Part shown: piece after piece, positions 6,940 to 64,000 of the stretch
How positions within the stretch are numbered: position 1 is the stretch's first letter
Layout of the letters: each line of letters begins with the position of its first letter
DNA from: Cycloclasticus sp. symbiont of Bathymodiolus heckerae
Lineage (GTDB): Bacteria; Pseudomonadota; Gammaproteobacteria; Methylococcales; Cycloclasticaceae
NCBI GenBank assembly: GCA_002101235.1
Contig: LWTL01000117.1
Coordinates: 27,432-91,431, forward strand
DNA length: 64,000 nt
Direction: 5' to 3'
Position numbers and translations under genes: made by a program
The notes under the pieces: model-generated
Told to the model about the DNA's origin: nothing
What the model saw: the letters and a program-made list of their open reading frames with translations, nothing else
The model's database searches: none

Positions 6940-6945
6940 GGTGTT

Positions 6946-7392
6946 CTATTCAGTAGTAACGGGTTCTTCTGCGCCTTGTAGCAAAGCATCAAGCGTATGC
7001 CATGGCAATGTTGCGCATTTCACACGAGCTGGGTATTCACAGACTCCTGCTAAAACCGCTAATTTACCTAAATCATCCATTTCTACATGTTCACCGGTTG
7101 CCATTTTATGGAACAGGCTAAACAGTTTCTGCGCTTCTTCTTCAGTTTGGCCTTTAATCATGTCAGTCATTAAAGATGTTGATGCCGTTGAGATTGCACA
7201 CCCTTGCCCTTGAAAACTAGCATCGCTAATTTTACCGTCAGCGAGCTTTATAAATAAGGTTAAACGATCACCACATAACGGGTTAAAACCATCAATTTGA
7301 CGGTCCGCATCATCCATTTCACGAAAATTTCTAGGGTTTCTGTTGTGATCAAAAATAACTTCTTGATACAAATCTCTTAAATCATCAAGCAT
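6946..7392 (-). CDS. sufU: SUF system NifU-family sulfur-transfer protein SufU
   Basis: NPLCGD, GCAISTAS and RVKCATL; insertion before the third Cys; no LPPVK motif. Confidence 0.92.
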   Translation of the reverse strand: MLDDLRDLYQEVIFDHNRNPRNFREMDDADRQIDGFNPLCGDRLTLFIKLADGKISDASFQGQGCAISTASTSLMTDMIKGQTEEEAQKLFSLFHKMATGEHVEMDDLGKLAVLAGVCEYPARVKCATLPWHTLDALLQGAEEPVTTE

Positions 7393-8639: not shown

Positions 8640-9961
8640 TCTACTTTCATTCCTTCTTGAGGGAGTCGTTTAAGTAACTCTTCTAGTACTTTGATTTTTA
8701 AAGGATTAATTTTTATTCTTTCAACCATTTCATTGGCAAATGCAAACGTTAGCATATCTTTCGCCATCTGTTCACTAGCACCGCGAGACCGTAAATAGAA
8801 AATAGCAGCATCATCTAATTGCCCAACCGTCACACCGTGCGCGCACTTCACATCATCCGCATAAATTTCTAACTGTGGCTTACTGTCAATTTCAGAACGA
8901 TCTGATAATAAAAGGTTACGGTTGCTCATTTTCGCGTCCGTTTTTTGAGCATCTTCTGCTACAACAATACGGCCTTGGAAAACACCTTTCGACTTATCGT
9001 TTAAAATGCCTTTATAAAACTCATTACTCACCGCATGTGGCTGCGCATGGTTAACGCGAGTATGGTTATCCATGTGCTGCTGATCTTGACTGATAAATAA
9101 TCCGTCCAAATCACAATCGGATGCCGTACCCAGTTCTGCATGTACTTCACAGCGCGACAACGTAGCGCCAAATGTGTAGTTATACTGTTTAAAGATCGCA
9201 TTGCTGTCTAAACGCGTATATACACCGCCCACATGGTAAGCCTGTAACGATTCAGCTTGTAAACGGCTATGCGCAAGGCGTGCATTCGGCTCAACAACTA
9301 CTTCAGTTATTACATTAGTCAGGTAGCATGTATCTTCAGCGCCGTGATAGGTTTCAATAACACTGGCTTTAGAACCACTTTTAGCAAGAATTAAGTTACG
9401 GCTATTTGATACTGTTAACGCCCCGTCTTTTGACGAGATGAAGGCTAACTGAATCGGCTTTTCAACTTGAACGCCTTCCTTAATCGAAATAACCGCGCCA
9501 TCTGTAAATAAAGCGGTATTAAGGTTAATAAACCCTAATGCTGGTGTTTCCACCACTGAGTCAAATAAAGATCGAATTAATTCTTCGTTTTCAGCAAGGC
9601 CGGTACTGATCGCAGAAACGACAAGACCTTCAGGTAAAGCATCTAGTGACGATAAACCCGCTTGATAGAAACCATCAACAAAGACTAGATGATGGCAGTC
9701 ATCTAGCAATATGCCTTTTAAGAAACTCGCATCTACATCACCAGCTTTATCTGACAAGGTAAATTGTTTCTTCTCAATCGGTGAAATATTCGTGTAACGC
9801 CATTCTTCATCACGTAATGACGGGAAACCACCATCAGCAAACTCTTTTGTTGCTTGAAGACGTAGGCGGTTTAACCAATCTAAGTCTTGACCCGGCAAAT
9901 TGCTTTGCTTAGCTTCCAGTAAACTCGCGTAATGAGCGTTCGATAATTGTGTAACAGGCAT
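8630..9961 (-). CDS. sufD: Fe-S cluster assembly protein SufD
   Basis: RDEEWRYT, KPQLEIYADDVKCAHGVTVG and FYLRSRG motifs. Confidence 0.95.
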   Translation of the reverse strand: MPVTQLSNAHYASLLEAKQSNLPGQDLDWLNRLRLQATKEFADGGFPSLRDEEWRYTNISPIEKKQFTLSDKAGDVDASFLKGILLDDCHHLVFVDGFYQAGLSSLDALPEGLVVSAISTGLAENEELIRSLFDSVVETPALGFINLNTALFTDGAVISIKEGVQVEKPIQLAFISSKDGALTVSNSRNLILAKSGSKASVIETYHGAEDTCYLTNVITEVVVEPNARLAHSRLQAESLQAYHVGGVYTRLDSNAIFKQYNYTFGATLSRCEVHAELGTASDCDLDGLFISQDQQHMDNHTRVNHAQPHAVSNEFYKGILNDKSKGVFQGRIVVAEDAQKTDAKMSNRNLLLSDRSEIDSKPQLEIYADDVKCAHGVTVGQLDDAAIFYLRSRGASEQMAKDMLTFAFANEMVERIKINPLKIKVLEELLKRLPQEGMKVEWL

Positions 9962-9963
9962 AC

Positions 9964-10716
9964 TTAACTCGCTTTCTTTTCATCAACCCAAGCATACCCT
10001 TGCTCTTCAAGCTCAAGCGCCAGTTCTGGGCCGCCCGACTTAACAACTTTACCGTGCGCTAATACATGCACAAAGTCAGGTTTAATGTAGTCCAACAAAC
10101 GTTGGTAATGGGTAATAAGAACGAATGAACGTTTAGGGTCACGCAATCTATTAACGCCTTCTGCAACAATTTGAAGGGCATCAATATCCAAACCAGAATC
10201 GGTTTCATCTAGCACGCATAAGCTGGGTTCTAGCACAGACATTTGAAGAATTTCATTACGTTTCTTTTCGCCACCAGAGAAACCTTCGTTTACTGCGCGA
10301 TAAAGGAATTTTTCGTCCATATCTAGCTCTTTCATTTTACCTTTAACCGTCGCAATGAAGTCCATCGCATCAAGCTCAGATAAACCTTCGTATTTACGAA
10401 TACCGTTTAAAGCTGCTTTTAAGAAATAGATATTGCTCACGCCCGGTACTTCAACAGGGTATTGGAAAGCTAAGAATACGCCAGCCCATGCGCGTTCTTC
10501 AACGCTCATCTCCAATAAGTCTTTACCGTTAAACAACACGCGCCCTTTTGTTATGTCGTAGCCTTCGCGGCCAGCAAGAATATAAGACAGCGTGCTTTTA
10601 CCTGAACCATTTGGCCCCATAATCGCGTGTACTTCGCCTGCGCCAATTTCGAGGTTAATACCTCTTAAAATTTCTTTACCTTCAACACTTACGTGTAAAT
10701 CTTCAATTTTTAACAT
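9964..10716 (-). CDS. sufC: Fe-S cluster assembly ATPase SufC
   Basis: GPNGSGKST, NEGFSGGEKKRNE and LDETDSGLDIDAL. Confidence 0.97.
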   Translation of the reverse strand: MLKIEDLHVSVEGKEILRGINLEIGAGEVHAIMGPNGSGKSTLSYILAGREGYDITKGRVLFNGKDLLEMSVEERAWAGVFLAFQYPVEVPGVSNIYFLKAALNGIRKYEGLSELDAMDFIATVKGKMKELDMDEKFLYRAVNEGFSGGEKKRNEILQMSVLEPSLCVLDETDSGLDIDALQIVAEGVNRLRDPKRSFVLITHYQRLLDYIKPDFVHVLAHGKVVKSGGPELALELEEQGYAWVDEKKAS

Positions 10717-10761
10717 TCTGTTACGTCCTGATTTCTTAAATTCGTTTGATGTTCGTTTGTT

Positions 10762-12210
10762 TTAACCAACACTGCCTTCAAGGCTAATACCCAATAACGC
10801 CTGCGCTTCAACCGCAAACTCCATCGGTAATTCTTTAAACACTTCTTTACAGAAGCCGTTCACAATCATAGAGACCGCATCTTCTGCAGAAATACCACGC
10901 TGCATACAGTAGAACAATTGGTCTTCACTAATTTTTGATGTCGATGCTTCGTGCTCAATGGTTGCACTTGGGTTTTTCGTTTCAATGTACGGGAATGTAT
11001 GCGCACCACATTGATCACCCATTAATAAGGAATCACATTGTGTGTAGTTTCGAGCGCCTTCGGCTTTACGGCCAATTTTAACCAACCCACGGTAAGTGTT
11101 TTGACCATGTCCAGCGGAAATACCTTTAGAGATAATCGTACTGCTGGTGTTTTTACCGTGGTGGATCATTTTTGTACCGGTATCCGCTTGCTGATAATTA
11201 TTGGTCAATGCAACGGAGTAAAACTCGCCGATTGAATTATCACCTTTCAATACAACACTCGGGTATTTCCACGTAATCGCAGAGCCTGTTTCAACCTGCG
11301 TCCACGATACTTTTGCATTGTCTTCGCGGCATTCTGCACGCTTGGTTACAAAGTTATAAATACCGCCTACGCCGTTTTCATCGCCTGGGTACCAGTTTTG
11401 TACGGTTGAGTATTTAATCTCAGCGTCTTTTAAAATAACTAACTCTACAACTGCTGCGTGTAGTTGGTTTTCATCACGCATGGGTGCCGTACAGCCTTCT
11501 AGGTAACTAACATGGCTACCTTCATCGGCAATAATAAGCGTACGCTCAAATTGGCCAGTATTCGCCGCATTAATTCTAAAGTAGGTAGAGAGCTCCATTG
11601 GGCAACGTACGCCTTTAGGAATGTATACAAAAGAGCCATCACTAAATACGGCTGCATTGAGTGCAGCATAGAAGTTATCGTACTGAGAAACAACCGTGCC
11701 TAAATACTGCTTGATAAGCTCTGGCTGCTCTTTAACTGCTTCAGAGAACGAGCAAAAAATAACGCCCGCTTCATACAGTTTGTCTTTAAAGGTTGTAGCA
11801 ACGGACACACTGTCAAACACTGCATCCACTGCAACACCTGCAAGACGCATTTGCTCTTCCAACGGAATACCTAGCTTGTTGTAGGTGCTAATTAGCTCAG
11901 GGTCTACTTCATCAAGACTCTTAGGACCATCTGCCATGCTTTTAGGCGCAGAATAATAGCTAATTTCTTGGAAATCAATTTTAGGGAATTCAACAAATGC
12001 CCATTCTGGATGTTCCATAGTCAGCCAATGACGGTAAGCCTCTAAGCGCCATTCAAGCAAAAATTCAGGCTCGTCTTTTTTAGCTGATATGGCACGAATA
12101 GTATCTTCGTTCAAACCCGGTGGGAATGACTCAGATTCAATATCCGTTACAAAGCCATCCTTGTACTCTTGGCCGATCATGTCTTTCAAATTTTCATTAG
12201 ATGCTGCCAT
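10762..12210 (-). CDS. sufB: Fe-S cluster assembly protein SufB
   Basis: [21 protein letters not shown] and NYTQCDSLL. Confidence 0.97.
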
Positions 12211-12681
12211 CTAGTTCTCCACTTTTAAATCGTTTGTTTGAGTTTTTAGCGGCATATTGACCATGACTGCTTGTTGCCGAACAGGCGCAACCATATCGGC
12301 CAACGTAACCGCTTCCAAAGCCATGTAAACCGCTCTGTTGATTAAATTCCAATTACCTTTGATTTCGCACGAAGATTCTTGCTCGCAAGCGCCTGTATGC
12401 GTTGTGCACTCGGTCATTGCTATTGGCCCCTCTATCGCCGTAATAATCTCAGCCACATGAACATCCTTCGGGGTACGCGTTAACAAGTAACCGCCTTTAG
12501 AACCTCGATGTGAATTCAAAATATTAGCTTTAGAGAGCAACTTCAGCACCTTACTAACCGTAGGCAACGCTACATCAGTCGCTTGAGTAATATCTGACGC
12601 AGCATGAAGCTCATCGGGCTGATGAGCAATATGCGTTAATATAACCGTTGCATAATCTGTTAATTTACTGACTCTAAGCAT
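12211..12681 (-). CDS. SUF system Fe-S cluster assembly regulator (Rrf2/IscR family)
   Basis: Rrf2 winged HTH (SHRGSKGGYLL) and three Cys (ECTTHTGACEQESSC); first gene of the suf operon. Confidence 0.92.
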   Translation of the reverse strand: MLRVSKLTDYATVILTHIAHQPDELHAASDITQATDVALPTVSKVLKLLSKANILNSHRGSKGGYLLTRTPKDVHVAEIITAIEGPIAMTECTTHTGACEQESSCEIKGNWNLINRAVYMALEAVTLADMVAPVRQQAVMVNMPLKTQTNDLKVEN

Positions 12682-12689
12682 GACATCCT

Positions 12690-12720
12690 CTTATATAGGA
12701 CTATTTTAGTACTATATAAG
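12690..12720. promoter_or_regulatory. Putative Rrf2/IscR-type operator of the suf operon
   Basis: CTTATATAGGACTA-TTT-TAGTACTATATAAG: 14-bp inverted arms with one mismatch, abutting the GAGGA RBS of the regulator. Resembles the IscR type-1 motif ATA...GACTAWWWTAGTC...TAT. Confidence 0.78.
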
Positions 12721-12761
12721 CCTGCTGTAAATAAACAGAGCGATTTATTATCTGTGAATAG

Positions 12762-12977
12762 CTACGGAAGCGTTTTTAAAACAAGCGTTTCACCGGCAAA
12801 CTCTACTTTATCTCCAGCAACTAGCTTTTTACGCTTTCTTGTTTCTACTTCGCCATTAACACGTACTTTACCTTCGGAAATGAAAAACTTTGCTTCGCCT
12901 CCGCTCGCGGCAAGGCTCTCAAGTTTAAGTAACGCGTAAAGCTCTATAAACTCCTTGTTTAAGATCACATCTATCAT
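12762..12977 (-). CDS. S4-domain RNA-binding protein (YaaA/YbcJ-like)
   Basis: IELYALLKLESLAASGGEAKFFISEGKVRVNGEVETRKRKKL is the stand-alone S4 pattern. Confidence 0.9.
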   Translation of the reverse strand: MIDVILNKEFIELYALLKLESLAASGGEAKFFISEGKVRVNGEVETRKRKKLVAGDKVEFAGETLVLKTLP

Positions 12978-12993
12978 GGGTCGTTAACTCTAT

Positions 12994-13698
12994 TTAATTG
13001 TTAGGGCAAAACGTTTTTGCCTTTGATTCCGGTAAATCATAATATTGATACAAGCAAATCATCGCCGATTCGTTTGCCGCCTCTACATCCATATGCTTTA
13101 ACAAACCTTGCCACAGGCTCATTCTCTCAGGCCCACCTATATACTGATTAGGCTGCCCTCGCTTTGTTGTCCATAACCCTACCCCATTAAAGCTGTACAC
13201 GGGGATTAAGTCAGTGCGTTGAGGGGCCGGCAGTATAGACGGATTTAAATTATCCAGCACTAACGGAATTCCATTTGGTGTTTCAAAATAACTAACAACC
13301 ATATGTGGTTTGTTAATGGCCAATGCTTTTACATAGGTTAAACGTAATTTACGCTCATCCATGCCCATCGCACTTAATGTGAAATATTTTGCTAGTGCAA
13401 TATCCTCGCAATCGCCAGCATTGGTAACTAACGTTTGCAAAGGTGTTGCCCAATAGTCATCTTTTCTCCAATGAATAATATCGTCAATGAAACGAATCTC
13501 ATTGATAAAATCATTGGCGGATAAAAGCTTTTCAAAATCTGGTTGACTAGAACCTGCTTCAATAAGCTCTTTCCAGGCTTGTACGCGAGCATGTGTGGCC
13601 TGATCTATGCCGTTAAACTTAGGCTCTTCAACTGTTGGAGAACTGGCGCAACCGGCTAGTAAAACGAGCAATAAACCAATAGCAACTCGCCCCATCAT
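12994..13698 (-). CDS. Transglutaminase-like cysteine peptidase (BTLCP/LapG family), predicted lipoprotein
   Basis: DDIIHW..DDYWATP, GDCEDIALAKY, HMV and LVLDNL (Cys-His-Asp triad); lipobox LAGC. Confidence 0.87.
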   Translation of the reverse strand: MMGRVAIGLLLVLLAGCASSPTVEEPKFNGIDQATHARVQAWKELIEAGSSQPDFEKLLSANDFINEIRFIDDIIHWRKDDYWATPLQTLVTNAGDCEDIALAKYFTLSAMGMDERKLRLTYVKALAINKPHMVVSYFETPNGIPLVLDNLNPSILPAPQRTDLIPVYSFNGVGLWTTKRGQPNQYIGGPERMSLWQGLLKHMDVEAANESAMICLYQYYDLPESKAKTFCPNN

Positions 13699-13705
13699 AG
13701 GTTAT

Positions 13706-14002
13706 TCACCCCACTAGCCCTTCTATAGCTTTTGCCAAGTCAAAATCTCTTGCTGAAATTCCGCCCGCTTCATGTGTCATTAAATCAATACCCACGGTTT
13801 TATAAACGTTAAACCATTCTGGGTGGTGGTTTTGTTTTTCTGCCAATATAGCCACCTGAGTCATAAAACCAAACGCTTGCACAAAGTTTTTAAACATAAA
13901 GGTTTTGTGTAGTTTTTCACCTTTAATAACCCATGGCTCCAAAAGTCCGCTATTGAGCTTATTTAGCTCAGTCTCGACTGTCTCTGTTGAATATTTGTCC
14001 AT
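13706..14002 (-). CDS. phhB: Pterin-4-alpha-carbinolamine dehydratase
   Basis: [24 protein letters not shown] (catalytic HH intact) and [13 protein letters not shown]. Confidence 0.92.
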
Positions 14003-14018
14003 AAACTAACCTCCAATT

Positions 14019-14609
14019 TTAATCGATTTTTGATATTACACGCCGCCTATAGCCAATGATCATAATCAGTAATAAACAAAACACAGCAACCGTTGCGGGG
14101 AAAAGAATTGTTGTTACAGAGTAAACCTCTAAGGCAACGACAGCAATGGTATTTCTAACCGCGATAATGACAAAAAATGGAATACTTTCTTCGTAAGGTT
14201 TTTCATACGCTTTACGCATAGTGGGTAGTAAACCCAATATATCCACCATGGTTAAAATAATCACGGCCCATAACGGGTCAGCTGTTAAGTACCACAGTGG
14301 TAATGATGATAACGCCAGTATGAAAAAGACCCAATCAATCCTTTTAATATGGATATCACCTTTTTTTGTATAAGCCAGATACGCAACATAACAAGTGATG
14401 ATTGCTGATACGCCAATAGGCCACGCACCTACTCCACCACCCGCTTTAAGTTGCGCAAAGAAAACAATAAGTGTTGTGGAACCCCAAATAACCCAAGAGA
14501 AAACATGCGGTTTTACCGTGCTGTTCAGAATAGAACGGATGTAAGGGTAAAAGCCGTAAAAAGTCAGCCCTATGGCAAAAGCACTGAGGTATTGATTAAT
14601 TGTCATCAC
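14019..14609 (-). CDS. Uncharacterised integral membrane protein with two PQ-loop/SemiSWEET-like repeats
   Basis: About 6-7 hydrophobic segments; two similar units, YPYIRSILNSTVKPHVFSW and LPTMRKAYEKPYEESIPFF. Confidence 0.6.
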   Translation of the reverse strand: MMTINQYLSAFAIGLTFYGFYPYIRSILNSTVKPHVFSWVIWGSTTLIVFFAQLKAGGGVGAWPIGVSAIITCYVAYLAYTKKGDIHIKRIDWVFFILALSSLPLWYLTADPLWAVIILTMVDILGLLPTMRKAYEKPYEESIPFFVIIAVRNTIAVVALEVYSVTTILFPATVAVFCLLLIMIIGYRRRVISKID

Positions 14610-14631
14610 GTTATTTTACGTGATTAGTTAT

Positions 14632-14663
14632 AAAAAGGCGTGGCTTTAAAGCCCCGCCTTTTT
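14632..14663. terminator. Intrinsic terminator downstream of the TonB receptor gene
   Basis: AAAAAGGCG-TGGCTTTAAAGCC-CCGCCTTTTT: GC stem with A/T tracts on both sides. Confidence 0.85.
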
Positions 14664-14675
14664 CAGTTTTTAAAT

Positions 14676-17057
14676 TTACAATTTTAGCTTAACGCCGACC
14701 CAGGCCCCTCGAGGCGCCCCTGCTCCATAGAAACGAGTATCGGTAAAGACACCAAAACCCGGCGCCTCGTCAGGTTCACCATATAAGCCGAAAGTTTCAT
14801 ATTCACGGTCGAACACATTATCAACACGGGCAAAGATATCCAAATTGTTCGTTACTGCATAACGTCCGTGTAAATTAAAGACCGTGTAACCACCGACTTT
14901 GCTGCTAGCATTTGCTTCATCACCTCTAAAGTATTGACTTGAGTTATAGACGGCATCAAAACCCACAGCGAACTTCTCACTCACATTCCAATCTACCCCC
15001 CATTTAAGCGTGTGTTTTGGAATACTGGGGATACTGTTACCTTTTTCAACACTTAGCTCATCAATACCAAAAGCAATAGCTGCAGGGTTGTTTTCGGCAT
15101 TCACTTCAAAACTATTCAAAAACTCCGCTTCTATCCAGCTGTAATTCATAAACCAACTCCACTGTTGGTAATCAGCATCAAGAGAAAGTTCCAATCCACG
15201 ACGACGTGTTTTACCAATATTTGAAAAGTAACCTGGGCTTAGACCAGGGCCTTCTTCGGTCGGCAAAAAGTAAATATCATCGTGGTTAACGGTTTGGAAC
15301 ACACCCGCATGCCAGTTCATACTCTGTATAGCACCTCGCAAACCAGCTTCCCATGTTTTTGCAACGACCATATCAAGCGGCGGATCACTTAAAAAGGAGT
15401 TAGGCAATGCACAAGGGTTTGTTTGATCGTGACAAGTTAACTCTGCCGCTGTTGGCACACGCGATGACTCGCTGTAGCTCACATAACTGGCTACTTGCGT
15501 GCTGAATTCATACGTTAACCCTGCAGAAGGATTAAAGCGAGTAAAAGTGTGCGTGCTGCTTTCACCTGCTGGCACGACAGGCTGATCACCGGTTGTACCG
15601 GAAATATTAATACGTGAATAATTGTAACGCCCCGAAAGCGTTAGTGTTAAAGCATCGTTAACTGAAAAGCTATCCATAAAGAACAAACTAGCTGTACTTG
15701 TTTTGATTTTTGCATCCACAATACTTTCCGCATTGATTAAACCTGTTCCTGTTGTGCCACGGTCTTCTGTGAATTCCGCTATTTCGGTAGCAAAACGATA
15801 TGTCACATCCGCTTGGTCAAAACTAAAACCGGTTATTAATTGGTTCTCATGTCCATACAAATCATTAAGAAAGGTTAGTTGTCCGCCTAAACCGTAACCG
15901 TCTTGTTCTGTTGTGCTGCTGTTATTTATAGCTATTTCATCATCGTCTAAACCGGGGTTAACGACGTTGCCATTTTGGTCTTCAACTTGTTCGCCTTCTT
16001 CTACCAAGTCGCCAGCAGTACATGCGCCTCCACATTCATCTGCTGTAATAATAATATCGCCGTTTTCGTTAAGGCCAGCGCCAACATTAGGGCCGGCAAT
16101 AACTACTAGGTCAATAACGCCATAATCCGAACCATCACCGTTAAACGTATCCCTGTCATTTTTACGAAGATAGGCATTGCCCGAAAACTGAACCGTATCC
16201 GACAACCAATGATTTCCTGTTAGCGCTGCCATGCGTAATTCATTTTGCGTATTATCTGGGTAAGTAAATACCTCTTTACGGTCTTGCTTCAAAAGCTCTA
16301 ACGGTGAAGAGCCATTGCCGTTTAAATCGGTATCTGCCGCAGCTAAGGTGAGCTCTAGTTCTGAATTATCTGAACGCCACCCAAAACTGCTAAAAAGCTG
16401 CTTCGCATCTGACTCTGAATGATCACGCCAACCGCTTTCTTTAAACCAATTCCCTGTAACAAAGTAACTTAAATCACCATCATTTCCGCCACTTTCAAAT
16501 TCATTCGCACGCCTATTAAAAGAGCCTCCGTATGCTTGCACTGAATTCCCTGAGTTAGTAAATCCATTTTTCGTTTTAATCGACAACGCACCGCCCAGCG
16601 TATTTAAACCAAACAACGGGTTTGAACCGGCAATTAAGTTAATACCTGAAATAGCTGACTGAGGAATAACGTCCCAATTAACGGCATCACCAAAGGGTTC
16701 GTTAATACGCACACCGTTCATATAAACGGATAAGCCTTGAGAATTACCCAATAAAGGAGATGCTGTAAAGCCGCGATACTGTAAGTCTGGCTGCAGTGGG
16801 TTATTTTGAGCTTGGTTAATATGTACGCTACCCAAGTTCCGCGCCATATAATCGCTCACATCAAGACTTTGGGATTTTTCAATCGCTTTAGAGTTAGCTG
16901 TTTGAACAGGGTAAGGCACGCTATTTTTATCTATTCCCACGCCGTGTAAAGGTGTCGTCGCGACAACCTCTATATCTTTCATCTGCCGTTGCTCTTGCGC
17001 TAATGCGGGCGCAGCAATAAACACCAAACCAGCAAATACTATTATTCCCCTAGTCAC
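14676..17057 (-). CDS. TonB-dependent outer-membrane receptor, resembling the LanA/LutH-type family
   Basis: Signal peptide; plug motif YRGFTASPLLGNSQGLSVYMNGVRINEPFGDAVNWDVIP...NPLFGLNTLGGA; ELTCHDQTNPCALPNSFLSDPPL; barrel-type C-terminus. GTG start with a GGGG RBS. Confidence 0.88.
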   Translation of the reverse strand: MTRGIIVFAGLVFIAAPALAQEQRQMKDIEVVATTPLHGVGIDKNSVPYPVQTANSKAIEKSQSLDVSDYMARNLGSVHINQAQNNPLQPDLQYRGFTASPLLGNSQGLSVYMNGVRINEPFGDAVNWDVIPQSAISGINLIAGSNPLFGLNTLGGALSIKTKNGFTNSGNSVQAYGGSFNRRANEFESGGNDGDLSYFVTGNWFKESGWRDHSESDAKQLFSSFGWRSDNSELELTLAAADTDLNGNGSSPLELLKQDRKEVFTYPDNTQNELRMAALTGNHWLSDTVQFSGNAYLRKNDRDTFNGDGSDYGVIDLVVIAGPNVGAGLNENGDIIITADECGGACTAGDLVEEGEQVEDQNGNVVNPGLDDDEIAINNSSTTEQDGYGLGGQLTFLNDLYGHENQLITGFSFDQADVTYRFATEIAEFTEDRGTTGTGLINAESIVDAKIKTSTASLFFMDSFSVNDALTLTLSGRYNYSRINISGTTGDQPVVPAGESSTHTFTRFNPSAGLTYEFSTQVASYVSYSESSRVPTAAELTCHDQTNPCALPNSFLSDPPLDMVVAKTWEAGLRGAIQSMNWHAGVFQTVNHDDIYFLPTEEGPGLSPGYFSNIGKTRRRGLELSLDADYQQWSWFMNYSWIEAEFLNSFEVNAENNPAAIAFGIDELSVEKGNSIPSIPKHTLKWGVDWNVSEKFAVGFDAVYNSSQYFRGDEANASSKVGGYTVFNLHGRYAVTNNLDIFARVDNVFDREYETFGLYGEPDEAPGFGVFTDTRFYGAGAPRGAWVGVKLKL

Positions 17058-57915: not shown

Positions 57916-60542
57916 GTTCCGATATACCTAGCGCACCAAGCCCTATGCATAGCATTCCTGAAATAAAAGCCCGTATCCAAGAATTTAATGAAGACTTACT
58001 TGAGCGCGCCAAGTCTGATGAAATAATCGAAGTTTTACTTGAAGCTCGCAGTGACTTTATTGATCTTCTTCTAACCGAGTGTTGGCACAAAATTTTGGGT
58101 GAGCACAGCCATAAACTGTCATTAATTGCCACTGGCGGTTACGGACGCGCAGAACTTCACCCCTTCTCTGACATTGACCTACTTATTGTTTTTGATGAAA
58201 AAACCCTAGATGAATACAAGTCTGACTTGGAGTCTTTTTCCACATTCCTTTGGGATATAGGGTTAAAACCAGGCCTAAGCGTTAGAACAATTGATGATTG
58301 CTTTGAGCAGTCAAAATTAGATGTCACTGTTATTACAAACCTGATGGAAGCACGGCTAATAACCGGCTCTGAGGAATTCTTTGATGGTATGCAAGAAAAA
58401 GTCAGTGCTGAAAAGATTTGGTCGCCTGTTGAGTTTTTCCACGAAAAAGTTGATGAGCAACACAAGCGCCATTTAAAGTTTGGCAATACTGCTTATAACC
58501 TTGAGCCTGATATCAAAGAAGGCCCCGGTGGCTTACGAGATATCCAAACAATTCAATGGATTACACAGCGCTATTTTGGCTCTAATTCTCTGGGGGAACT
58601 CGTTAACCATGCCTTTCTTACTAAAGGCGAGTACCGGACTCTTATGAAAGGCCAACGTTTTCTTTGGAAAGTTCGTTTTGAACTACATATCTTGGCTAAC
58701 CGACCAGAAAACCGTTTGCTATTCGACTATCAAAAAAGTTTAGCTTTAGCCTTTGGTTTTGAAGATGGCAACAATAATCTCGCTGTTGAAGCCTTTATGC
58801 AGCAATATTATCGAACCGTTATGGAGCTTGAACGAATTAATGAGTTAATTCTTCAAATCTTTAACGAGGCCTTAGAAAACAAAACCATGGACGTGCACCC
58901 TATTAACGAATTCTTTCGAGTCGTTAATGGGTATATTGAAGCGACCCACCCCGATACTTTTAAAACAACCCCTGTTGCATTACTTGATATTTTTCTACAA
59001 CTTCAAAAACACGATGACATAAAAGGCGTTAGAGCAGCGACCATCCGCCTTATTAGAGAGAGCTTGCATTTAATTGATGATGAATTCCGTACACAACAAA
59101 CGGCTCAGCATTTATTTCTCGATATTATTCGGCAACCACACGGCATTACCCATCAATTTAGACGAATGAATCGATACGGTGTTTTAGCTGCTTACATTCC
59201 CGCTTTTGACGACATTATTGGGCGTATGCAATATGATTTATTTCATGCTTACACGGTCGATCAACATACCTTATTTATTGTTAGAAATTTACGCCGCTTT
59301 GCCTTAGAAAAGCACAAAGAAGATTTGCCACATTGCCACGAAGTATTCCAAAGCATTGCTAAACCCGAATTATTATATTTGGCGGGCCTATTTCACGACA
59401 TAGCTAAAGGCCGCGGCGGCAATCATGCTGAACTTGGTAAAGAAGATGCTATCGCCTTTTGCGAACAACACGGCTATAACAATTACGATACTCAATTAGT
59501 TGGCTGGGTTGTACAGAACCACCTCATTATGTCGATGACTGCTCAACGAAAAGATATTAACGACCCCGTTATCATTCATAAATTTGCATCTAAAATTGGT
59601 AGTTTAGAATACCTCGATTATCTATATCTATTAACCGTTGCCGATATTAGGGCAACCAATCCAACCTTATGGAATGACTGGAAAGGCTCCTTACTTAAAG
59701 AGCTTTATCACAATACGCAAAAACTTCTACGTCGTGGCTTACAAACATCCACCCAAGAAGAAGATGACATTAAAGACAAGCAATACCAAGCACGACAAGG
59801 CTTAAATAAACGGGGGCTTAACGATGAGAAAATTGATGCCATCTGGAATCATATCAGCAAGGATTACTTCTCTCGTTTTTCCATTGAAGATAGCATTTGG
59901 CATACCTTAGCCATTTCATCCTGTAGCGAAGACGAACTACCACTCGTTCTATTACGCCCTCAGACTAAACGTGGCGGCGCGGAAATATTTATATACGTTA
60001 ATGATCGGCATGGCATGTTTGCCGTCTGTACAGCAACATTAGACCAGCTTGGTTTAAACATCCTAGACGCACGAATCATTGCTACTCATGAAGATATCGC
60101 CCTTATCAGCTTTCATGTGTTAGAGGATACCGGCAGCCCCATCCCGGATTTATCGCGGGAACAGACCGTCGTTAACATCTTACGCCGTAACTTACTAAAC
60201 CCCGAACAGACAGTACTCTCTGTTGATCGACATAAAACGCGTCAATCTAAATATTTCGACACGCCAACTACCATCCAATTCAAAGAGGACCATCAAAAGC
60301 GCTTCACTATATTGGAAATAAACACCCATGATCAACCCGGAGTTTTATCCATCATTGGGCAATGCTTTAGCACCTGTCGAGTCAATGTTAGGAATGCCAA
60401 AATTACAACATTGGGTACCGTCGCCGAAGATATCTTTTACCTTACCGACAGCAACAACCAAATGATTACAGATAAAGCATTGCTCGACCGTTTAGAAGCA
60501 TTGCTTATAAAAGAGCTTTCTCCAGAAAGCGAAACTACTTAA
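57912..60542 (+). CDS. glnD: [Protein-PII] uridylyltransferase
   Basis: GGYGRAELHPFSDIDL, KEGPGGLRDI, HD domain (LFHDIAKGR) and C-terminal ACT domains. Confidence 0.97.
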   Translation: MSSDIPSAPSPMHSIPEIKARIQEFNEDLLERAKSDEIIEVLLEARSDFIDLLLTECWHKILGEHSHKLSLIATGGYGRAELHPFSDIDLLIVFDEKTLDEYKSDLESFSTFLWDIGLKPGLSVRTIDDCFEQSKLDVTVITNLMEARLITGSEEFFDGMQEKVSAEKIWSPVEFFHEKVDEQHKRHLKFGNTAYNLEPDIKEGPGGLRDIQTIQWITQRYFGSNSLGELVNHAFLTKGEYRTLMKGQRFLWKVRFELHILANRPENRLLFDYQKSLALAFGFEDGNNNLAVEAFMQQYYRTVMELERINELILQIFNEALENKTMDVHPINEFFRVVNGYIEATHPDTFKTTPVALLDIFLQLQKHDDIKGVRAATIRLIRESLHLIDDEFRTQQTAQHLFLDIIRQPHGITHQFRRMNRYGVLAAYIPAFDDIIGRMQYDLFHAYTVDQHTLFIVRNLRRFALEKHKEDLPHCHEVFQSIAKPELLYLAGLFHDIAKGRGGNHAELGKEDAIAFCEQHGYNNYDTQLVGWVVQNHLIMSMTAQRKDINDPVIIHKFASKIGSLEYLDYLYLLTVADIRATNPTLWNDWKGSLLKELYHNTQKLLRRGLQTSTQEEDDIKDKQYQARQGLNKRGLNDEKIDAIWNHISKDYFSRFSIEDSIWHTLAISSCSEDELPLVLLRPQTKRGGAEIFIYVNDRHGMFAVCTATLDQLGLNILDARIIATHEDIALISFHVLEDTGSPIPDLSREQTVVNILRRNLLNPEQTVLSVDRHKTRQSKYFDTPTTIQFKEDHQKRFTILEINTHDQPGVLSIIGQCFSTCRVNVRNAKITTLGTVAEDIFYLTDSNNQMITDKALLDRLEALLIKELSPESETT

Positions 60543-61224
60543 GGCGCGCATGACGATACATTTTCGCCAGTTTTTCAGGTGGTTGTTTAAAGAAGTAAAG
60601 CAAGCGTAAACGCCACATTAACAAAACAGTGCGTGCAACACCGTTTTTCTGCCAACGTCGGCTAGAGGTTACAACAGCGCTATTCAAACAAACTGGCAAA
60701 CATACTTTCTTAAGGCGTTTACTGATGGCAATATCTTCCATTAGCGCAATACGTGGATAGCCACCTATTTTTTGGAACAAATCTTTTGAAACAAACATCG
60801 CATGGTCACCGGTAACAATACCGGTCAAACACGAACGTTTGTTCATCATCGTTTCAATAACTCTATACACCCAGCTTTTCCCATCAAGCTTTACCTTAAA
60901 GCGCCCCCAATATGAATCTTTTACCGTATAGGCATTAAGTGAGTCGAACTCATCGTTAGGTAACTGCGTATCGGCATGCAAAAAAAGAAGGCATTGCCCT
61001 TGAGCAACACTTGCTCCTTTGTTCAATTGATATGCGCGCCCTTTTTCACTACTGATGACAAGGTCAACCAATGGTTCGGCAATCGAACACGTTGCATCTT
61101 CACTGCCGCCGTCTACGACAATTACTTCAACGCCTTTTTTCCGAAGGGGTTGCAAGCCTTGTAATGTTGAGGACAGAGCGTGTTCCTCATTAAGAACAGG
61201 GATGATGATCGATATTAAAACCAT
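60535..61224 (-). CDS. TIGR04283-type family 2 glycosyltransferase (arsenosugar-associated)
   Basis: IIIPVLNEE, VVDGGSED, GRA.Q.N.GA, LLFLHADT, LMEDI and TSSRRW; clustered with arsS/arsM. Confidence 0.88.
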   Translation of the reverse strand: MVLISIIIPVLNEEHALSSTLQGLQPLRKKGVEVIVVDGGSEDATCSIAEPLVDLVISSEKGRAYQLNKGASVAQGQCLLFLHADTQLPNDEFDSLNAYTVKDSYWGRFKVKLDGKSWVYRVIETMMNKRSCLTGIVTGDHAMFVSKDLFQKIGGYPRIALMEDIAISKRLKKVCLPVCLNSAVVTSSRRWQKNGVARTVLLMWRLRLLYFFKQPPEKLAKMYRHARLK

Positions 61225-61246
61225 TACACCCGCCTAATAGAACTTT

Positions 61247-62290
61247 CTAGCAACAAGAACCGCCTTCTTTGGCATTACTGTGTGCCGCGCCTTTTGTTTC
61301 ACTTGCAGGTCTCAATGTACCTGCTGGCGCGCACCATTTTTGCCCCACCGTTTCTTGTGCAGGCGTGATACCAATAAAATCATCTGCATAAGGGCCGCTC
61401 AATAAAAAATCATACGTACGCTCACATACGGCCATACGCTTACCACGGTAAAACACATGCCCTTCATCGTCTATTGTTTGCGCATACGGGCCTTTGTAAA
61501 TAACCGCATGGCCTTTATCAATACACGGAATATCTTCGCCTTTGGTTGCGGTAATCGTGACTGAGCGAAACTCAATCCCTTCCACTACTTGCCAAGGCTC
61601 AGCATCCCATTTATCGCATTTAACTGCTTTAAAACCCGCTTGTTTAAAACTTTCTAAAAACTCATCTTCTAAAAATGAACCTGAGATACAACCCGACCAT
61701 AATTCAGGATCAGCCTTTAAATGCTCGGGGATAGTTTCATCCGCTACAATATCCGACATCGCAATACGTCCCCCGGGCTTTACCACGCGAAAAATCTCTT
61801 CCACCAATTGCTTTTTATCGCTGTCGTTCACAAGGTTTAATACACAATTTGATAGCACTAAATCCACCGAGTTATCAGCAATCATCGGTTCTGCGCTGTT
61901 CGGGTTATCTAAACTATGTGATAAATCTTGAATTTGGCCTTTAACGAAACTTACTTTGTCGCCACCCAGTTTTTCAGCCATTTCAGGTTGATAGTGTCGA
62001 GCTAACGCCAACATTTCATCGTTCATATCCACGCCAATTACGCGGCCTTTATCGCCGACTAACTGCGCCGCCATATAGCAAATTTTTCCAGACCCTGACC
62101 CTAAATCAAGCACGACATCGCCGTCTTGAACATAACGAGACGGATCACCACAACCATAGTCTTTCTCAATCACCTCAGCAGGCAACATGGCTAGCAAAGA
62201 GGCGTCGTAATCAACGGGGCAACACAAACTCGGCTGCACCGCTTCTGCACCTTCTGTGTAACGTTCTACTACGCTTTCTTTCATGTCCAT
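61247..62290 (-). CDS. arsM: ArsM/AS3MT-like SAM-dependent arsenite methyltransferase
   Basis: SAM motif LDLGSGSG. Cys positions match ArsM/AS3MT: LCCP (C23/24), YGCG (C47), SNCV (C149), WSGCISG (C201). C-terminal SCC. Confidence 0.8.
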   Translation of the reverse strand: MDMKESVVERYTEGAEAVQPSLCCPVDYDASLLAMLPAEVIEKDYGCGDPSRYVQDGDVVLDLGSGSGKICYMAAQLVGDKGRVIGVDMNDEMLALARHYQPEMAEKLGGDKVSFVKGQIQDLSHSLDNPNSAEPMIADNSVDLVLSNCVLNLVNDSDKKQLVEEIFRVVKPGGRIAMSDIVADETIPEHLKADPELWSGCISGSFLEDEFLESFKQAGFKAVKCDKWDAEPWQVVEGIEFRSVTITATKGEDIPCIDKGHAVIYKGPYAQTIDDEGHVFYRGKRMAVCERTYDFLLSGPYADDFIGITPAQETVGQKWCAPAGTLRPASETKGAAHSNAKEGGSCC

Positions 62291-62414
62291 TTTTTAGTCC
62301 TCTAAAAATTCAGTGTTATAACAAATAAAGATTTTGTTCTCAGGCCAAGCATCAAAACAAAGCACAAGAAAGTTTATAATTTATACATGACGGTATGATG
62401 ACGAAAATTTTTCA

Positions 62415-63359
62415 TCACGTCAGTGAGCCACCACAGCTTGAACCACTGCCGGCAGTGCAACCATAGCAATGATCAGCAATTGTAATGGGTTGCTGGTTAA
62501 AGCTAACGTCCATACAGTTTGAAATATGTTTTTTGGAACCCGAAAAACCCGCAGATAACTCAAGCATTTGGTTAAAGTCACAGTCGTACCCTTCCCAATC
62601 GACACTCAATAAGCTTTTACACATTAAATTATTAAGGTTAACTGCTTGATAAGCCGATTTAAGCATATCCATATAGTTTGTAAACTGGCCTTTAGAAACA
62701 AGCGTGCTTCCAAAGCGCTTAATCGGCATGTTTGTAATGGTTAACAATTGGCTAAATTCAATACCAAAGTTTTCACGCAAGTGCGTTTTGTATTCCAGCT
62801 CGAGTGTTGCTTGGTTAGGAGGCAGTTGAGCGCCTTGCGGGTTAAAAACCAAGTCCAGTTGCAACGTTTTCCCATAGCCTAAACGGTTAAGTGTTTGCAG
62901 CGCCGATATGCTTTTATCAAACACACCATTACCTCGTTGTGCATCGACATTATCGCTGGAATAACATGGCAACGATGCAACGATTTGAACACCATTACTG
63001 GCCATAAACTCAGCCATATGCTCATAGCCATGCTCTTCTAATATCGTTAAATTACAACGGTCTATAACCGTCACTTCACGCTTTACTGCTTCTAATACAA
63101 TGTATTCGAAATGTGGATTCATCTCGGGCGCCCCGCCTGTCAAATCAAGCGTTTTAATATTGTGTTTATCAATAAACAATAACAACGTATCTATCGTCTG
63201 TTTATTCATTAACTCTTTACGCGTTGGCCCCGCATTTACATGACAGTGCAAGCACGACAGATTACACAAATAGCCCAAGTTCACTTGTAACGTGTCAAGC
63301 GCATGCCTATTGATAGATGGAAAGTCCGTTAGGGCTAATTTTTCGAGTGTTGAATGCAT
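62415..63359 (-). CDS. arsS: Arsenosugar biosynthesis radical SAM protein ArsS (radical SAM/Cys-rich family)
   Basis: LQVNLGYLCNLSCLHCHVNAGP (CX3CX2C), DLTGGAPEMNP, VIDRCNLT, ASLPCY, YDCDFNQML and HCYGCTAGSGSSCGG. Confidence 0.9.
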   Translation of the reverse strand: MHSTLEKLALTDFPSINRHALDTLQVNLGYLCNLSCLHCHVNAGPTRKELMNKQTIDTLLLFIDKHNIKTLDLTGGAPEMNPHFEYIVLEAVKREVTVIDRCNLTILEEHGYEHMAEFMASNGVQIVASLPCYSSDNVDAQRGNGVFDKSISALQTLNRLGYGKTLQLDLVFNPQGAQLPPNQATLELEYKTHLRENFGIEFSQLLTITNMPIKRFGSTLVSKGQFTNYMDMLKSAYQAVNLNNLMCKSLLSVDWEGYDCDFNQMLELSAGFSGSKKHISNCMDVSFNQQPITIADHCYGCTAGSGSSCGGSLT

Positions 63360-63420
63360 GATTTGCGAAATTAAAGACTAAGGCTCTGTTTAAAAACGCG
63401 ACAGCCTAACAGAGTGCTTA

Positions 63421-64000
63421 TCATTTTCGTCTAGCCGCATGGAACCGCTTTAACAGTTCCAATATTTTTTCGGGCTTATGGCCTTTTTTCCAAACCCCTG
63501 CGGTGTATTTATTGGCTTCTGCCCATGTCGGGTATGCGTGAATGGTGCCTAATATTTTATTTAAACCCAAGCCATGCTTCATCGCTAATACAAACTCGGG
63601 CAGCATTTCACCTGCGTGTTCACCGACAATGGTAACGCCTAAAATTTTGTCTTTGCCAACAGGTGTTAACACGCTAACAAAGCCGTCTGTTTTACCGTCT
63701 ACGATTGCCCTGTCCAATTCGTCTAATTGAAACACCGTGGTTTCAGTTACAAGCCCTAACGCTTCAGCAGACTGTTCGTTATACCCTACACTGGCTATTT
63801 CTGGCTCTGTAAAGGTAACGCGCGGTATTACACGGTTATCCGCCTTAAAACGCCACATACTTCCAAATAAGCTGTTAACAGCGCTATACCACGCATAGTG
63901 CGCGGCAGTATGGGTAAACTGATAAGGCCCCGCCACATCGCCACAAGCATAGATAGTCGGCACGCTGGTGCGCATGTGCTTATTAACTTCAATCGTTCCT
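63421..64000 (-). CDS. FAD-dependent pyridine nucleotide-disulfide oxidoreductase (5' part outside the window)
   Basis: The frame stays open to the window edge (GTIEVNKHMRTS). Motifs: IYACGDVAGPYQFTH, TFTEPEIASVG, GKILGVTIVG and IHAYPT dimerisation domain. No MerA C-terminal CC pair. Confidence 0.88.
   Translation of the reverse strand, partial: GTIEVNKHMRTSVPTIYACGDVAGPYQFTHTAAHYAWYSAVNSLFGSMWRFKADNRVIPRVTFTEPEIASVGYNEQSAEALGLVTETTVFQLDELDRAIVDGKTDGFVSVLTPVGKDKILGVTIVGEHAGEMLPEFVLAMKHGLGLNKILGTIHAYPTWAEANKYTAGVWKKGHKPEKILELLKRFHAARRK

Follow-up and report, generated by a model that had tools for sequence, protein, structure and literature searches.

The question raised by this locus is what is made by four adjacent genes of a Cycloclasticus-like genome, among them relatives of the arsenic enzymes ArsM and ArsS. 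The preliminary description took them for a biosynthetic operon and not for one of resistance, and this view is supported by equivalog matches for ArsS and the GT2, the ArsM cysteines and the co-travelling genes. Together with three unlinked genes, the operon would convert inorganic arsenic to an adenosine- or ribose-linked organoarsenical of the arsenosugar type, a reading to which we give slightly better than an even chance. The genes lie at the end of the window, that is, the whole 64,000-nucleotide stretch of DNA that was analysed, in the following arrangement.

63421..64000, continuing past the window end, minus strand: 3′ part of the reductase gene (ORF and profile search)
62415..63359, minus strand: ArsS radical SAM gene (TIGR04167, PF12345)
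62291..62414, minus strand: arsS-arsM spacer, 124 nt, AT-rich
61247..62290, minus strand: ArsM-like methyltransferase gene (ArsM profile matches, cysteines)
60535..61224, minus strand: GT2 gene (TIGR04283)
60515..60530, minus strand: terminator-like hairpin, directly 3′ of the GT2 stop codon

All four ORFs are present on the minus strand, as had been described, and the ORF coordinates give the same gaps of 61, 124 and 22 nt. The cassette ORFs are intact within 60535-64000+, except for the reductase, which is cut by the window end. The glnD gene is convergent to the operon and its 3′ end holds the hairpin, while no terminator-like sites were found in the two larger intergenic gaps; reductase-arsS-arsM-GT2 is a predicted operon of four genes. 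Members of the genus share the order addB-addA-reductase-arsS-arsM-GT2-glnD, and the order reductase-ArsS-ArsM-GT2 is also found in Methylophaga, Acidiferrobacterales and other Gammaproteobacteria. This gene order recurs within the genus as well as in unrelated Gammaproteobacteria, and such an arrangement is far beyond what chance would give; the four cassette genes stay together in many Proteobacteria. The cassette neighbourhood consists of housekeeping genes, and the locus is best read as an accessory operon that is vertically kept.

The ars resistance operons (arsR-arsB/acr3-arsC, with or without arsM) have an ArsM-type gene in common with this locus, but the locus has no arsR, efflux pump or arsC. 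As the preliminary description had claimed, none of arsR, arsB, acr3 and arsC adjoins the operon, the region covered being C117:85000-100901. Acr3 and ArsB are also absent genome-wide, at an estimated completeness of 100%, and a resistance operon was rejected on these two grounds. A glutaredoxin-type ArsC is encoded elsewhere, on contig C108, unlinked to the operon. With ArsC present but neither Acr3 nor ArsB, some non-efflux handling of arsenic would be needed. The first step of the proposed pathway would be the entry of arsenate via phosphate transport and its reduction by this ArsC, which is assigned by an equivalog HMM match.

ArsS, with 314 residues, matches TIGR04167 over model positions 2-303 of 303 at 440.6 bits against a cut-off of 300 (440.3 bits in the whole-genome profile search), and its DUF3641 domain, residues 179-312, matches PF12345 at 176 bits. 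A script check located the radical SAM motif C32-X3-C36-X2-C39 and the Cys-rich tail C298-X2-C301-X7-C309. With the family match above its cut-off and both motifs present, the earlier identification of a CX3CX2C radical SAM protein with a Cys-rich tail stands. The characterised ArsS adenosylates DMAs(III) to give DDMAA (PMC13598754), and SsArsS and SsArsM carry out the first steps of arsenosugar synthesis, according to PMC8552651, which cites Xue et al. 2019. In that account, Synechocystis sp. PCC 6803 likewise has a TIGR04167/DUF3641 radical SAM gene beside a four-cysteine ArsM-type gene, and the predicted chemistry, in which DMAs(III) and a 5′-deoxyadenosyl group yield DDMAA, is common to both systems (PMC13598754). 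In the best reading, the ArsS described here is predicted to adenosylate DMAs(III) in the same manner. It would cleave SAM and transfer the 5′-deoxyadenosyl group to DMAs(III), forming 5′-deoxy-5′-dimethylarsinoyl-adenosine (DDMAA). Unlike Synechocystis, however, the host is a non-phototrophic hydrocarbon degrader, its operon also encodes a DedA-fused disulfide reductase together with a GT2, and its methyltransferase is of a different type.

The methyltransferase, a SAM-dependent protein of 347 residues, belongs to an unnamed ArsM-like subfamily. It scores highest on NF040538, the arsinothricin ArsM family, with 312.6 bits (cut-off 500); PRK11873 gives 190.1 bits (cut-off 263) and NF038099, the arsenosugar ArsM family, 140.6 bits (cut-off 400). 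It reaches none of these curated ArsM cut-offs, and the cyanobacterial arsenosugar ArsM type was rejected on the last of the three scores. Its best PDB match is CmArsM, at 131 bits. In CmArsM numbering the catalytic cysteines of ArsM are C44, C72, C174 and C224; C47, C149 and C201 of the methyltransferase align with the last three of these (PDB 4FS8), while C23/C24 sit 23-24 residues before C47, at the expected place of the first. The cysteines at the four catalytic positions are unchanged in 23 subfamily members, and the invariant cysteines of the subfamily comprise C23, C24, C47, C71, C149, C201, C289, C320 and the C-terminal pair C346-C347. The ArsM assignment of the preliminary description thus holds for the ArsM/AS3MT cysteine set, while the score falls short of every curated ArsM cut-off. 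On its four-cysteine site the enzyme would methylate As(III) to DMAs(III), and the invariant Cys-Cys at its C-terminus may retain or pass on the trivalent intermediate; both this step and the ArsS step are based on homology to biochemically characterised enzymes.

Since the ArsM scores lie below the cut-offs and the arsinothricin type is the closest, it is uncertain which substrate the enzyme uses and whether methylation precedes adenosylation. The arsinothricin system of Burkholderia gladioli (PMC8552651; bioRxiv 10.1101/2024.02.01.577332) likewise pairs an ArsM with a C-As-forming radical SAM enzyme, and NF040538 is modelled on the ArsM of that organism. The partner at this locus, however, is ArsS, which transfers a 5′-deoxyadenosyl group, rather than ArsL, which transfers a 3-amino-3-carboxypropyl group, and the locus has no arsQ permease. 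An ArsM-like gene of this kind is found near ArsS in only 17 of 80 ArsS loci, and one relative (G018) has reductase-ArsS-GT2 at the site with arsM alone missing, so the core cassette can work, or at least persist, without arsM.

The preliminary description implied that such an operon is rare and surprising, which does not hold: 47 of the 61 relatives pass the TIGR04167 cut-off, as do 188 of 400 genomes drawn evenly from the class, and the families already have names. The cassette is an ordinary example of a system whose biochemistry has been little explored but whose families are already in the NCBI library. TIGR04167, TIGR04282 and TIGR04283 make up the 'rSAM/selenodomain-associated' set of NCBIfam/TIGRFAMs and are now named 'arsenosugar biosynthesis' families. 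For TIGR04283 and TIGR04282 these names are guilt-by-association labels, and no paper in the collection searched tests an arsenosugar role of either.

It could be that the label stretches a finding from cyanobacteria too far, to a family that half of the Gammaproteobacteria carry, and that the cassette acts on a different thiophilic metalloid (Sb, Se, Te) or on a substrate that is not a metalloid. We regard this as decidedly unlikely. Although the methyltransferase lies below all ArsM cut-offs and its relatives carry only the generic NCBI label 'methyltransferase domain-containing protein', its subfamily invariantly keeps exactly the four As(III)-binding cysteines of CmArsM. When first defined, TIGR04167 was called a radical SAM 'selenodomain' family, but ArsS scores 140 bits over the equivalog cut-off. 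The housekeeping neighbourhood and the extremely wide spread would be unusual for a pathway dealing with a trace toxin, yet a widespread pathway is plausible because arsenate is ubiquitous in seawater and is taken up via phosphate transport. The ArsS cluster of Massilia contains the SelD-associated oxidoreductase family TIGR03169, which favours a substrate other than arsenic, whereas the one control genome of 14 with ArsS, TIGR04283 and TIGR04282 is that of a cyanobacterium, Synechococcus elongatus. It is in cyanobacteria that arsenosugar synthesis has been demonstrated by experiment, according to PMC8552651.

If arsenic is the substrate, the next question is whether the pathway continues beyond DDMAA and whether the GT2 takes part in it. 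The GT2 has 229 residues and matches TIGR04283 over model positions 1-221 of 221 at 267.6 bits against a cut-off of 182, in agreement with its earlier classification as a TIGR04283-type GT2. Its AlphaFold model (pLDDT 94.3) has a GT-A fold, and the nearest folds are the soluble NDP-sugar GT2s WrtF, PcManGT and TarS/TarP/RmlT; these matches, with TM about 0.65, do not identify the donor or the acceptor. The invariant residues are D38, H83-A-D85, T138-G-D140 and E163-D164. The DxD position, usually D-x-D in GT2 enzymes, reads H83-A-D85 in 23 of 23 aligned members.

Further candidate enzymes lie outside the operon. Among the additional families named in the preliminary description, TIGR04282 is present on contig C112 and DUF3047 on contig C123, both unlinked, while a tblastn screen of the genome found no homologue of DUF547. 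ArsS and TIGR04283 thus share one operon here, and TIGR04282, the other member of the NCBIfam set, is encoded apart; all three exceed their cut-offs in the host genome, and the families co-occur and are lost together among the relatives. The TIGR04282 gene (C112:26736-27335, 191.9 bits against a cut-off of 134) lies beside dapC and dapD. The second-best family of its product is CofC guanylyltransferase, and a PDB match, 3CGX, is annotated as a nucleotide-diphospho-sugar transferase. The sole PNP_UDP_1 member in the genome is an MTI/MTA phosphorylase, an unlinked housekeeping enzyme whose part in an arsenic pathway is conjectural. In the proposed pathway, phosphorolysis by this enzyme would strip the base from DDMAA to give alpha-5-deoxy-5-dimethylarsinoyl-ribose-1-phosphate, which the CofC-like TIGR04282/DUF2064 protein would turn into an NDP-sugar. 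The TIGR04283 GT2, acting as an inverting enzyme, would then move the arsinoyl-ribose to an acceptor, for instance glycerol or some glycerophospho compound, and the product would be a beta-riboside, as in natural arsenosugars. These three steps, like the role given to the reductase below, are drawn from the fold and family relationships of the proteins, from the co-occurrence of the genes and from stereochemical logic, and it is on this basis that we infer an arsenosugar as end product and a part for the GT2 in making it.

Alternatively, detoxification may end at the nucleoside. ArsM and ArsS would make DDMAA or methylated species, end products of low toxicity that are exported or stored, replacing arsenite efflux, while the GT2, the TIGR04282 protein and the reductase would have another task, such as envelope glycosylation or redox homeostasis, and would only co-occur with ArsS. 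This is unlikely, even though the genome has ArsC and, at its estimated 100% completeness, neither Acr3 nor ArsB, and even though the fold matches leave the donor and acceptor of the GT2 unfixed. Experimental backing, too, is confined to the ArsM and ArsS steps, on cyanobacterial homologues (PMC13598754; PMC8552651). However, both TIGR04283 and TIGR04282 are matched in 48 of 48 ArsS-matching relatives (47 above cut-off), a count that ignores kinship and MAG incompleteness, and in five relatives with completeness of 99% or more, ArsS, the two transferases and the ArsM-like gene are all missing. In one complete relative (G007), glnD abuts addA without the cassette, and the unlinked TIGR04282 gene is missing as well. 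In other genomes, ArsS clusters themselves contain MTAP paralogues, which points to further processing of the nucleoside; in Massilia psychrophila the paralogue lies immediately upstream of ArsS, and in Aquariibacter albus it lies on the same strand.

The proposed pathway also gives a role to the reductase. The preliminary description recognised a flavoprotein disulfide reductase, and the Pyr_redox_2, Pyr_redox and Pyr_redox_dim matches agree with this, but the window holds only the last 192 codons of a 722-residue fusion protein. The whole gene occupies C117:90852-93020, reaching window-equivalent position 65589, and its N-terminal membrane domain is DedA/VTT (PF09335, residues 80-194), which is fused to the reductase here and adjacent to it in other genomes. 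The redox motif is C285-LNTG-C290 (CxxxxC), and the His of the His-Glu dyad is kept, as in disulfide reductases, in H684AYPTWAE. With its CxxxxC motif, FAD/NAD(P)H domains and His-containing dimerisation domain, the protein is a predicted class-I flavoprotein disulfide reductase. The top PDB match is MerA (5x1y, 239 bits), followed by lipoamide dehydrogenases, and the fold, the FAD/NAD(P)H domains and the CxxxxC disulfide are common to all of these. Assignment as MerA was rejected, since TIGR02053 scores 366 against 454 and there is no C-terminal Cys pair, the last cysteine being C549; in contrast to MerA, the protein also has the N-terminal DedA/VTT domain and no NmerA domain. Anchored in the membrane, it would supply thiol reducing power, couple the pathway to the membrane, or both, and its targets may be the cysteines of ArsM or ArsS or pentavalent methylarsenicals.

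The DedA/VTT domain could instead be a lipid or polyprenyl-phosphate flippase, the product then being a membrane arsenolipid (an arsenosugar phospholipid or a polyprenyl-linked intermediate) made under phosphate starvation. This is very unlikely. The presence of the domain beside or within the reductase is in its favour, and the GT2 has fold relatives that act on polyol-phosphate polymers and polyprenyl-phosphate (TarS/TarP, ArnC, GtrB), but the GT2 itself has no transmembrane segment, its best fold matches are soluble, and the operon contains no lipid-synthesis gene. A link to phosphate would be consistent with the DUF3047 gene, which lies 2.4 kb from phoBR-pstS, and with a Pho-box-like direct repeat, GTCATCATACCGTCAT, at 62402-62387 in the arsS-arsM spacer, followed by TATAAA-type hexamers. 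The genome-wide count of this pattern, however, equals chance expectation, and the site is not conserved in the spacers of same-genus genomes; no RNA structure of significance was seen in the spacer (z = 0.72). The arsenosugar-type product is preferred to an arsenolipid, and the Pho-box-like site is a candidate lead only. Elsewhere in the genome, the same repeat pattern is also found upstream of phoB, of pstS and of an ORF that resembles a porin gene.

The cassette comprises four open reading frames on the minus strand within 60535-64000:

63421 to past the window end, minus strand, flavoprotein reductase (722 aa in full)
62415-63359, minus strand, radical SAM protein ArsS (314 aa)
61247-62290, minus strand, ArsM-like methyltransferase (347 aa)
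60535-61224, minus strand, GT2 glycosyltransferase (229 aa)

The preliminary description had read these genes as one operon with gaps of 61, 124 and 22 nt, and the spacing is identical on re-check. In the source assembly (2.13 Mb, 123 contigs), the window corresponds to C117:27432-91431, and contig C117 extends 9.5 kb past the window end, where the reductase is preceded by a co-directional addA-like helicase-nuclease gene and that gene, in turn, by addB. Since the start of the reductase overlaps the 3′ end and stop of the addA-like gene (7981-8021 of L003, the stretch C117:85000-100901; window-equivalent 65549-65589), read-through from addBA into the operon may occur. A consensus scan 5′ of the reductase found no sigma-70-like promoter, and an Rfam gathering scan of L003 returned zero riboswitches or other known RNAs. 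At the other end, glnD on the plus strand converges on the GT2 gene, the two stop-codon ends overlapping by 8 nt (60535-60542). A terminator-like hairpin at 60515-60530, after the GT2 stop and within the glnD coding sequence, could end the operon; the internal gaps contain no such site.

The cassette belongs to the NCBIfam ‘arsenosugar biosynthesis’ set (TIGR04167, TIGR04282, TIGR04283). ArsS scores 440.6 bits against TIGR04167 (cut-off 300), includes DUF3641 and has the C32-X3-C36-X2-C39 motif together with a Cys-rich tail. Searching PDB sequences with ArsS gives only distant radical SAM matches (YydG), so there is no informative structural homologue. The GT2 scores 267.6 bits against TIGR04283 (cut-off 182), and it is modelled with confidence as a GT-A fold (pLDDT 94.3), to which the nearest folds are soluble NDP-sugar GT2s. 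Its E163-D164 pair is invariant, and its version of the DxD motif reads H-A-D.

The methyltransferase is ArsM-like but falls under all curated ArsM cut-offs, with 312.6 against 500 for NF040538 (arsinothricin ArsM), 190.1 against 263 for PRK11873 and 140.6 against 400 for NF038099 (cyanobacterial arsenosugar ArsM). NCBI labels its close relatives only ‘methyltransferase domain-containing protein [Cycloclasticus sp.]’. One alternative for the cassette as a whole is that its substrate is something other than arsenic and that the family names are over-extended. Residues C47, C149 and C201 align to C72, C174 and C224 of CmArsM (PDB 4FS8), and a C23/C24 pair sits at the expected site of the first catalytic cysteine. 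All of these are invariant in 23 subfamily members with 66-91% identity to this methyltransferase, as are C71, C289, C320 and a Cys-Cys pair at the C-terminus. The Cycloclasticus enzymes are missing a loop of 25 residues, which follows about residue 130 in all other aligned members. The nearest type is the ArsM of the arsinothricin kind, whose substrate for methylation is an alkyl-As(III) compound; because of this likeness, adenosylation may also come ahead of the last methylation.

The N-terminus of the reductase is a VTT/DedA membrane domain (PF09335, residues 80-194), and the remainder, which carries C285-LNTG-C290 and H684AYPTWAE, makes up an entire class-I pyridine-nucleotide disulfide reductase. 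Some other Gammaproteobacteria encode the DedA domain and the reductase separately, in neighbouring genes. Identity with MerA is ruled out, the C-terminal Cys pair being absent and the score below the cut-off. The protein may re-reduce the thiols of ArsM or ArsS, may reduce pentavalent methylarsenicals, or may provide membrane coupling through its DedA domain; its role is the least constrained.

Genes of the DUF3047 and TIGR04282 families, which the preliminary description had named as possible upstream partners, are both in the genome but are unlinked to the operon, on contigs C123 and C112.

Genes elsewhere in the source genome that bear on the pathway
C112:26736-27335, stand-alone TIGR04282/DUF2064 gene, 191.9 bits (cut-off 134)
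C123:94210-94854 (6211-6855 of L085, a stretch of C123), DUF3047 gene, 2.4 kb from phoBR and pstS
C108:24698-25018, glutaredoxin-type ArsC, TIGR00014, 153 bits (cut-off 106), wrbA directly after
C110:6657-7379, MTI/MTA phosphorylase, PRK09136, 372 bits (cut-off 223)

The TIGR04282 gene lies beside dapC and dapD; the second-best family of its product is the CofC guanylyltransferase, and the one PDB relative that it has, 3CGX, bears the annotation of a nucleotide-diphospho-sugar transferase. The DUF3047 gene, elsewhere a frequent neighbour of ArsS, is here between clpB and the phoB-phoR-pstS group. A YffB-type ArsC-family protein adjoins dapD. The phosphorylase is the only PNP_UDP_1 (PF01048) member of the genome, and tblastn with an approximate Pfs-like MTA/SAH nucleosidase sequence gave no match in the genome. 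Diverged MTAP paralogues occur within ArsS clusters of other bacteria; the one in Massilia psychrophila lies immediately 5′ of ArsS, and the one in Aquariibacter albus is encoded on the same strand.

ArsS is known to add a 5′-deoxyadenosyl group, giving 5′-deoxy-5′-dimethylarsinoyl-adenosine, DDMAA (PMC13598754), and the arsenosugar chemistry of ArsS and ArsM is credited to Xue et al. (2019) in PMC8552651. By homology, the methyltransferase would supply methylated trivalent arsenic and ArsS would convert it to DDMAA. Since DDMAA is a 5′-substituted 5′-deoxyadenosine, it is a plausible substrate for the MTI/MTA phosphorylase, directly or after deamination, and phosphorolysis would yield alpha-5-deoxy-5-dimethylarsinoyl-ribose-1-phosphate. 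The CofC-like TIGR04282 protein could turn this ribose-1-phosphate derivative into an NDP-sugar (NDP-arsenoribose), from which the GT2 would transfer with inversion to form a beta-riboside, the configuration of natural arsenosugars. The modelled GT-A fold, the E163-D164 pair with the H-A-D variant, the likeness to soluble NDP-sugar GT2s and the MTAP paralogues in ArsS clusters support these later steps. That the operon, the unlinked TIGR04282 gene and the housekeeping phosphorylase make up a complete route from DDMAA to the beta-riboside, and that non-phototrophic Gammaproteobacteria thereby make arsenosugars or arsenosugar lipids, is a tentative proposal, which we rate nearer to doubtful than to probable. 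The route may instead be a detoxification that stops at DDMAA. A genome-wide search of the source genome, estimated as 100% complete, did not find the arsenite pumps Acr3 and ArsB and, because of this, how much the pathway contributes to the handling of arsenic should be readily visible.

A further alternative is that the product is a membrane arsenolipid made under phosphate-starvation control. The arsS-arsM spacer contains a direct repeat like a Pho box, GTCATCATACCGTCAT (62387-62402, minus strand), with TATAAA hexamers after it. The repeat resembles boxes on C123, where the pattern GTCA[TC]N6GTCA[TC] stands 39 nt before phoB, 81 nt before pstS and, as a triple repeat, before a porin-like ORF. 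Through such a site, operon expression may rise under phosphate starvation. However, the pattern occurs 14 times genome-wide against 14.7 expected, its two non-Pho intergenic matches (arsM and pyruvate kinase) are at about chance level, and five genomes of the genus do not have the repeat in their homologous or shorter spacers. The repeat is therefore a lead rather than a finding. The predicted RNA fold of the 124-nt spacer is no better than that of shuffled sequences (z = 0.72).

The pathway type proposed in the preliminary description stands, while the unusualness that it implied for such a bacterium does not, the families being curated and ArsS scoring above its cut-off in 188 of 400 genomes sampled evenly from the class (142 of 309 genera). 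These counts make ArsS in a non-phototrophic gammaproteobacterium the rule, not the exception. Among 61 relatives from the same genus and the same order, matches were found in 48 for ArsS (47 above the cut-off), 50 for the ArsM-like protein, 53 for TIGR04283 and 54 for TIGR04282. Every relative that matches ArsS also matches both transferase families, and all four families are missing in five genomes that are at least 99% complete (G007, G027, G044, G048 and G056). The p-values of Fisher tests of this co-occurrence are around 4e-7 to 4e-6, uncorrected for phylogeny or MAG incompleteness. Only one of the 14 controls, Synechococcus elongatus, has ArsS together with TIGR04283 and TIGR04282.

The nearest ArsS locus, at 83% identity, is that of ‘Cycloclasticus sp. 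symbiont of Poecilosclerida sp. M’, and the next, at 79%, is in a Piscirickettsiaceae MAG. Both have the order addB-addA-reductase-ArsS-ArsM-GT2-glnD-map, so the locus is part of the vertically inherited core neighbourhood rather than an island. C117:99164-100189 (L003 14165-15190) encodes an integron integrase (TIGR02249, 441 bits); this gene is about 7 kb past the window end and some 6 kb upstream of the reductase, with a small 121-aa ORF adjoining at the contig end. Arrival of the cassette with this integron, as a mobile island, is rejected because the addB-addA-cassette-glnD-map synteny is kept across the genus. Three relatives within the genus differ at the locus. G007 has no cassette, glnD being about 250 nt from addA, and is also missing the unlinked TIGR04282 gene; G018 keeps reductase-ArsS-GT2, with the methyltransferase precisely absent; and in G020 a GT2 fragment is the sole remnant. 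The cassette thus behaves like one functional unit, all of which can be lost together.

As a genomic observation the cassette is not surprising, since its families are curated and it is common. Slightly particular here are the fusion of DedA to the reductase, an ArsM-like subfamily that has no name and shows a C-terminal Cys-Cys and a genus-specific loop deletion, the genome without arsenite efflux pumps and, in a genus that can be cultured, a single locus at which the cassette is naturally present in some genomes and absent from others. A search of one literature library found no paper testing TIGR04283, TIGR04282 or the DedA-reductase, and no report of arsenosugar synthesis by heterotrophic Proteobacteria. 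Arsenosugars were reportedly found in hydrothermal-vent fauna by Larsen and co-workers in 1997. If the proposal is true, there would be an aphotic, bacterial source, with producers that include Cycloclasticus, those of its relatives that live in sponges of the deep sea, and roughly half of the class. Should the cassette work as proposed, arsenosugar-type compounds would come from a very large share of marine and freshwater heterotrophic and chemotrophic Proteobacteria, beyond algae and cyanobacteria, and the marine organoarsenic cycle would have different source terms; for the steps after DDMAA, the candidates would be a phosphorylase, the nucleotidyltransferase-like protein with DUF2064, the GT2 of family TIGR04283 and the reductase fused to DedA. 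Of practical value, Cycloclasticus has cultured members, and the full, arsM-less and absent cassettes are natural comparators at one fixed chromosomal site.

Methylophaga, Acidiferrobacterales and several unnamed Gammaproteobacteria share the sub-order reductase-ArsS-ArsM-GT2. Among 80 retrieved ArsS loci, where counts are lower bounds because many contigs are short, a TIGR04283 GT2 is near ArsS in at least 45, TIGR04282 in at least 41, the reductase in at least 36, a close ArsM-like gene in at least 17, DUF547 in at least 13 and DUF3047 in at least 10. The ArsS cluster of Massilia psychrophila is larger (5409-15332 of its locus, L013), with the order ECF sigma factor, MTAP paralogue, ArsS, DedA-reductase, TIGR04283, TIGR04282, unknown ORF, a TIGR03169 member of the SelD-associated oxidoreductase family and an ArsM-like methyltransferase.
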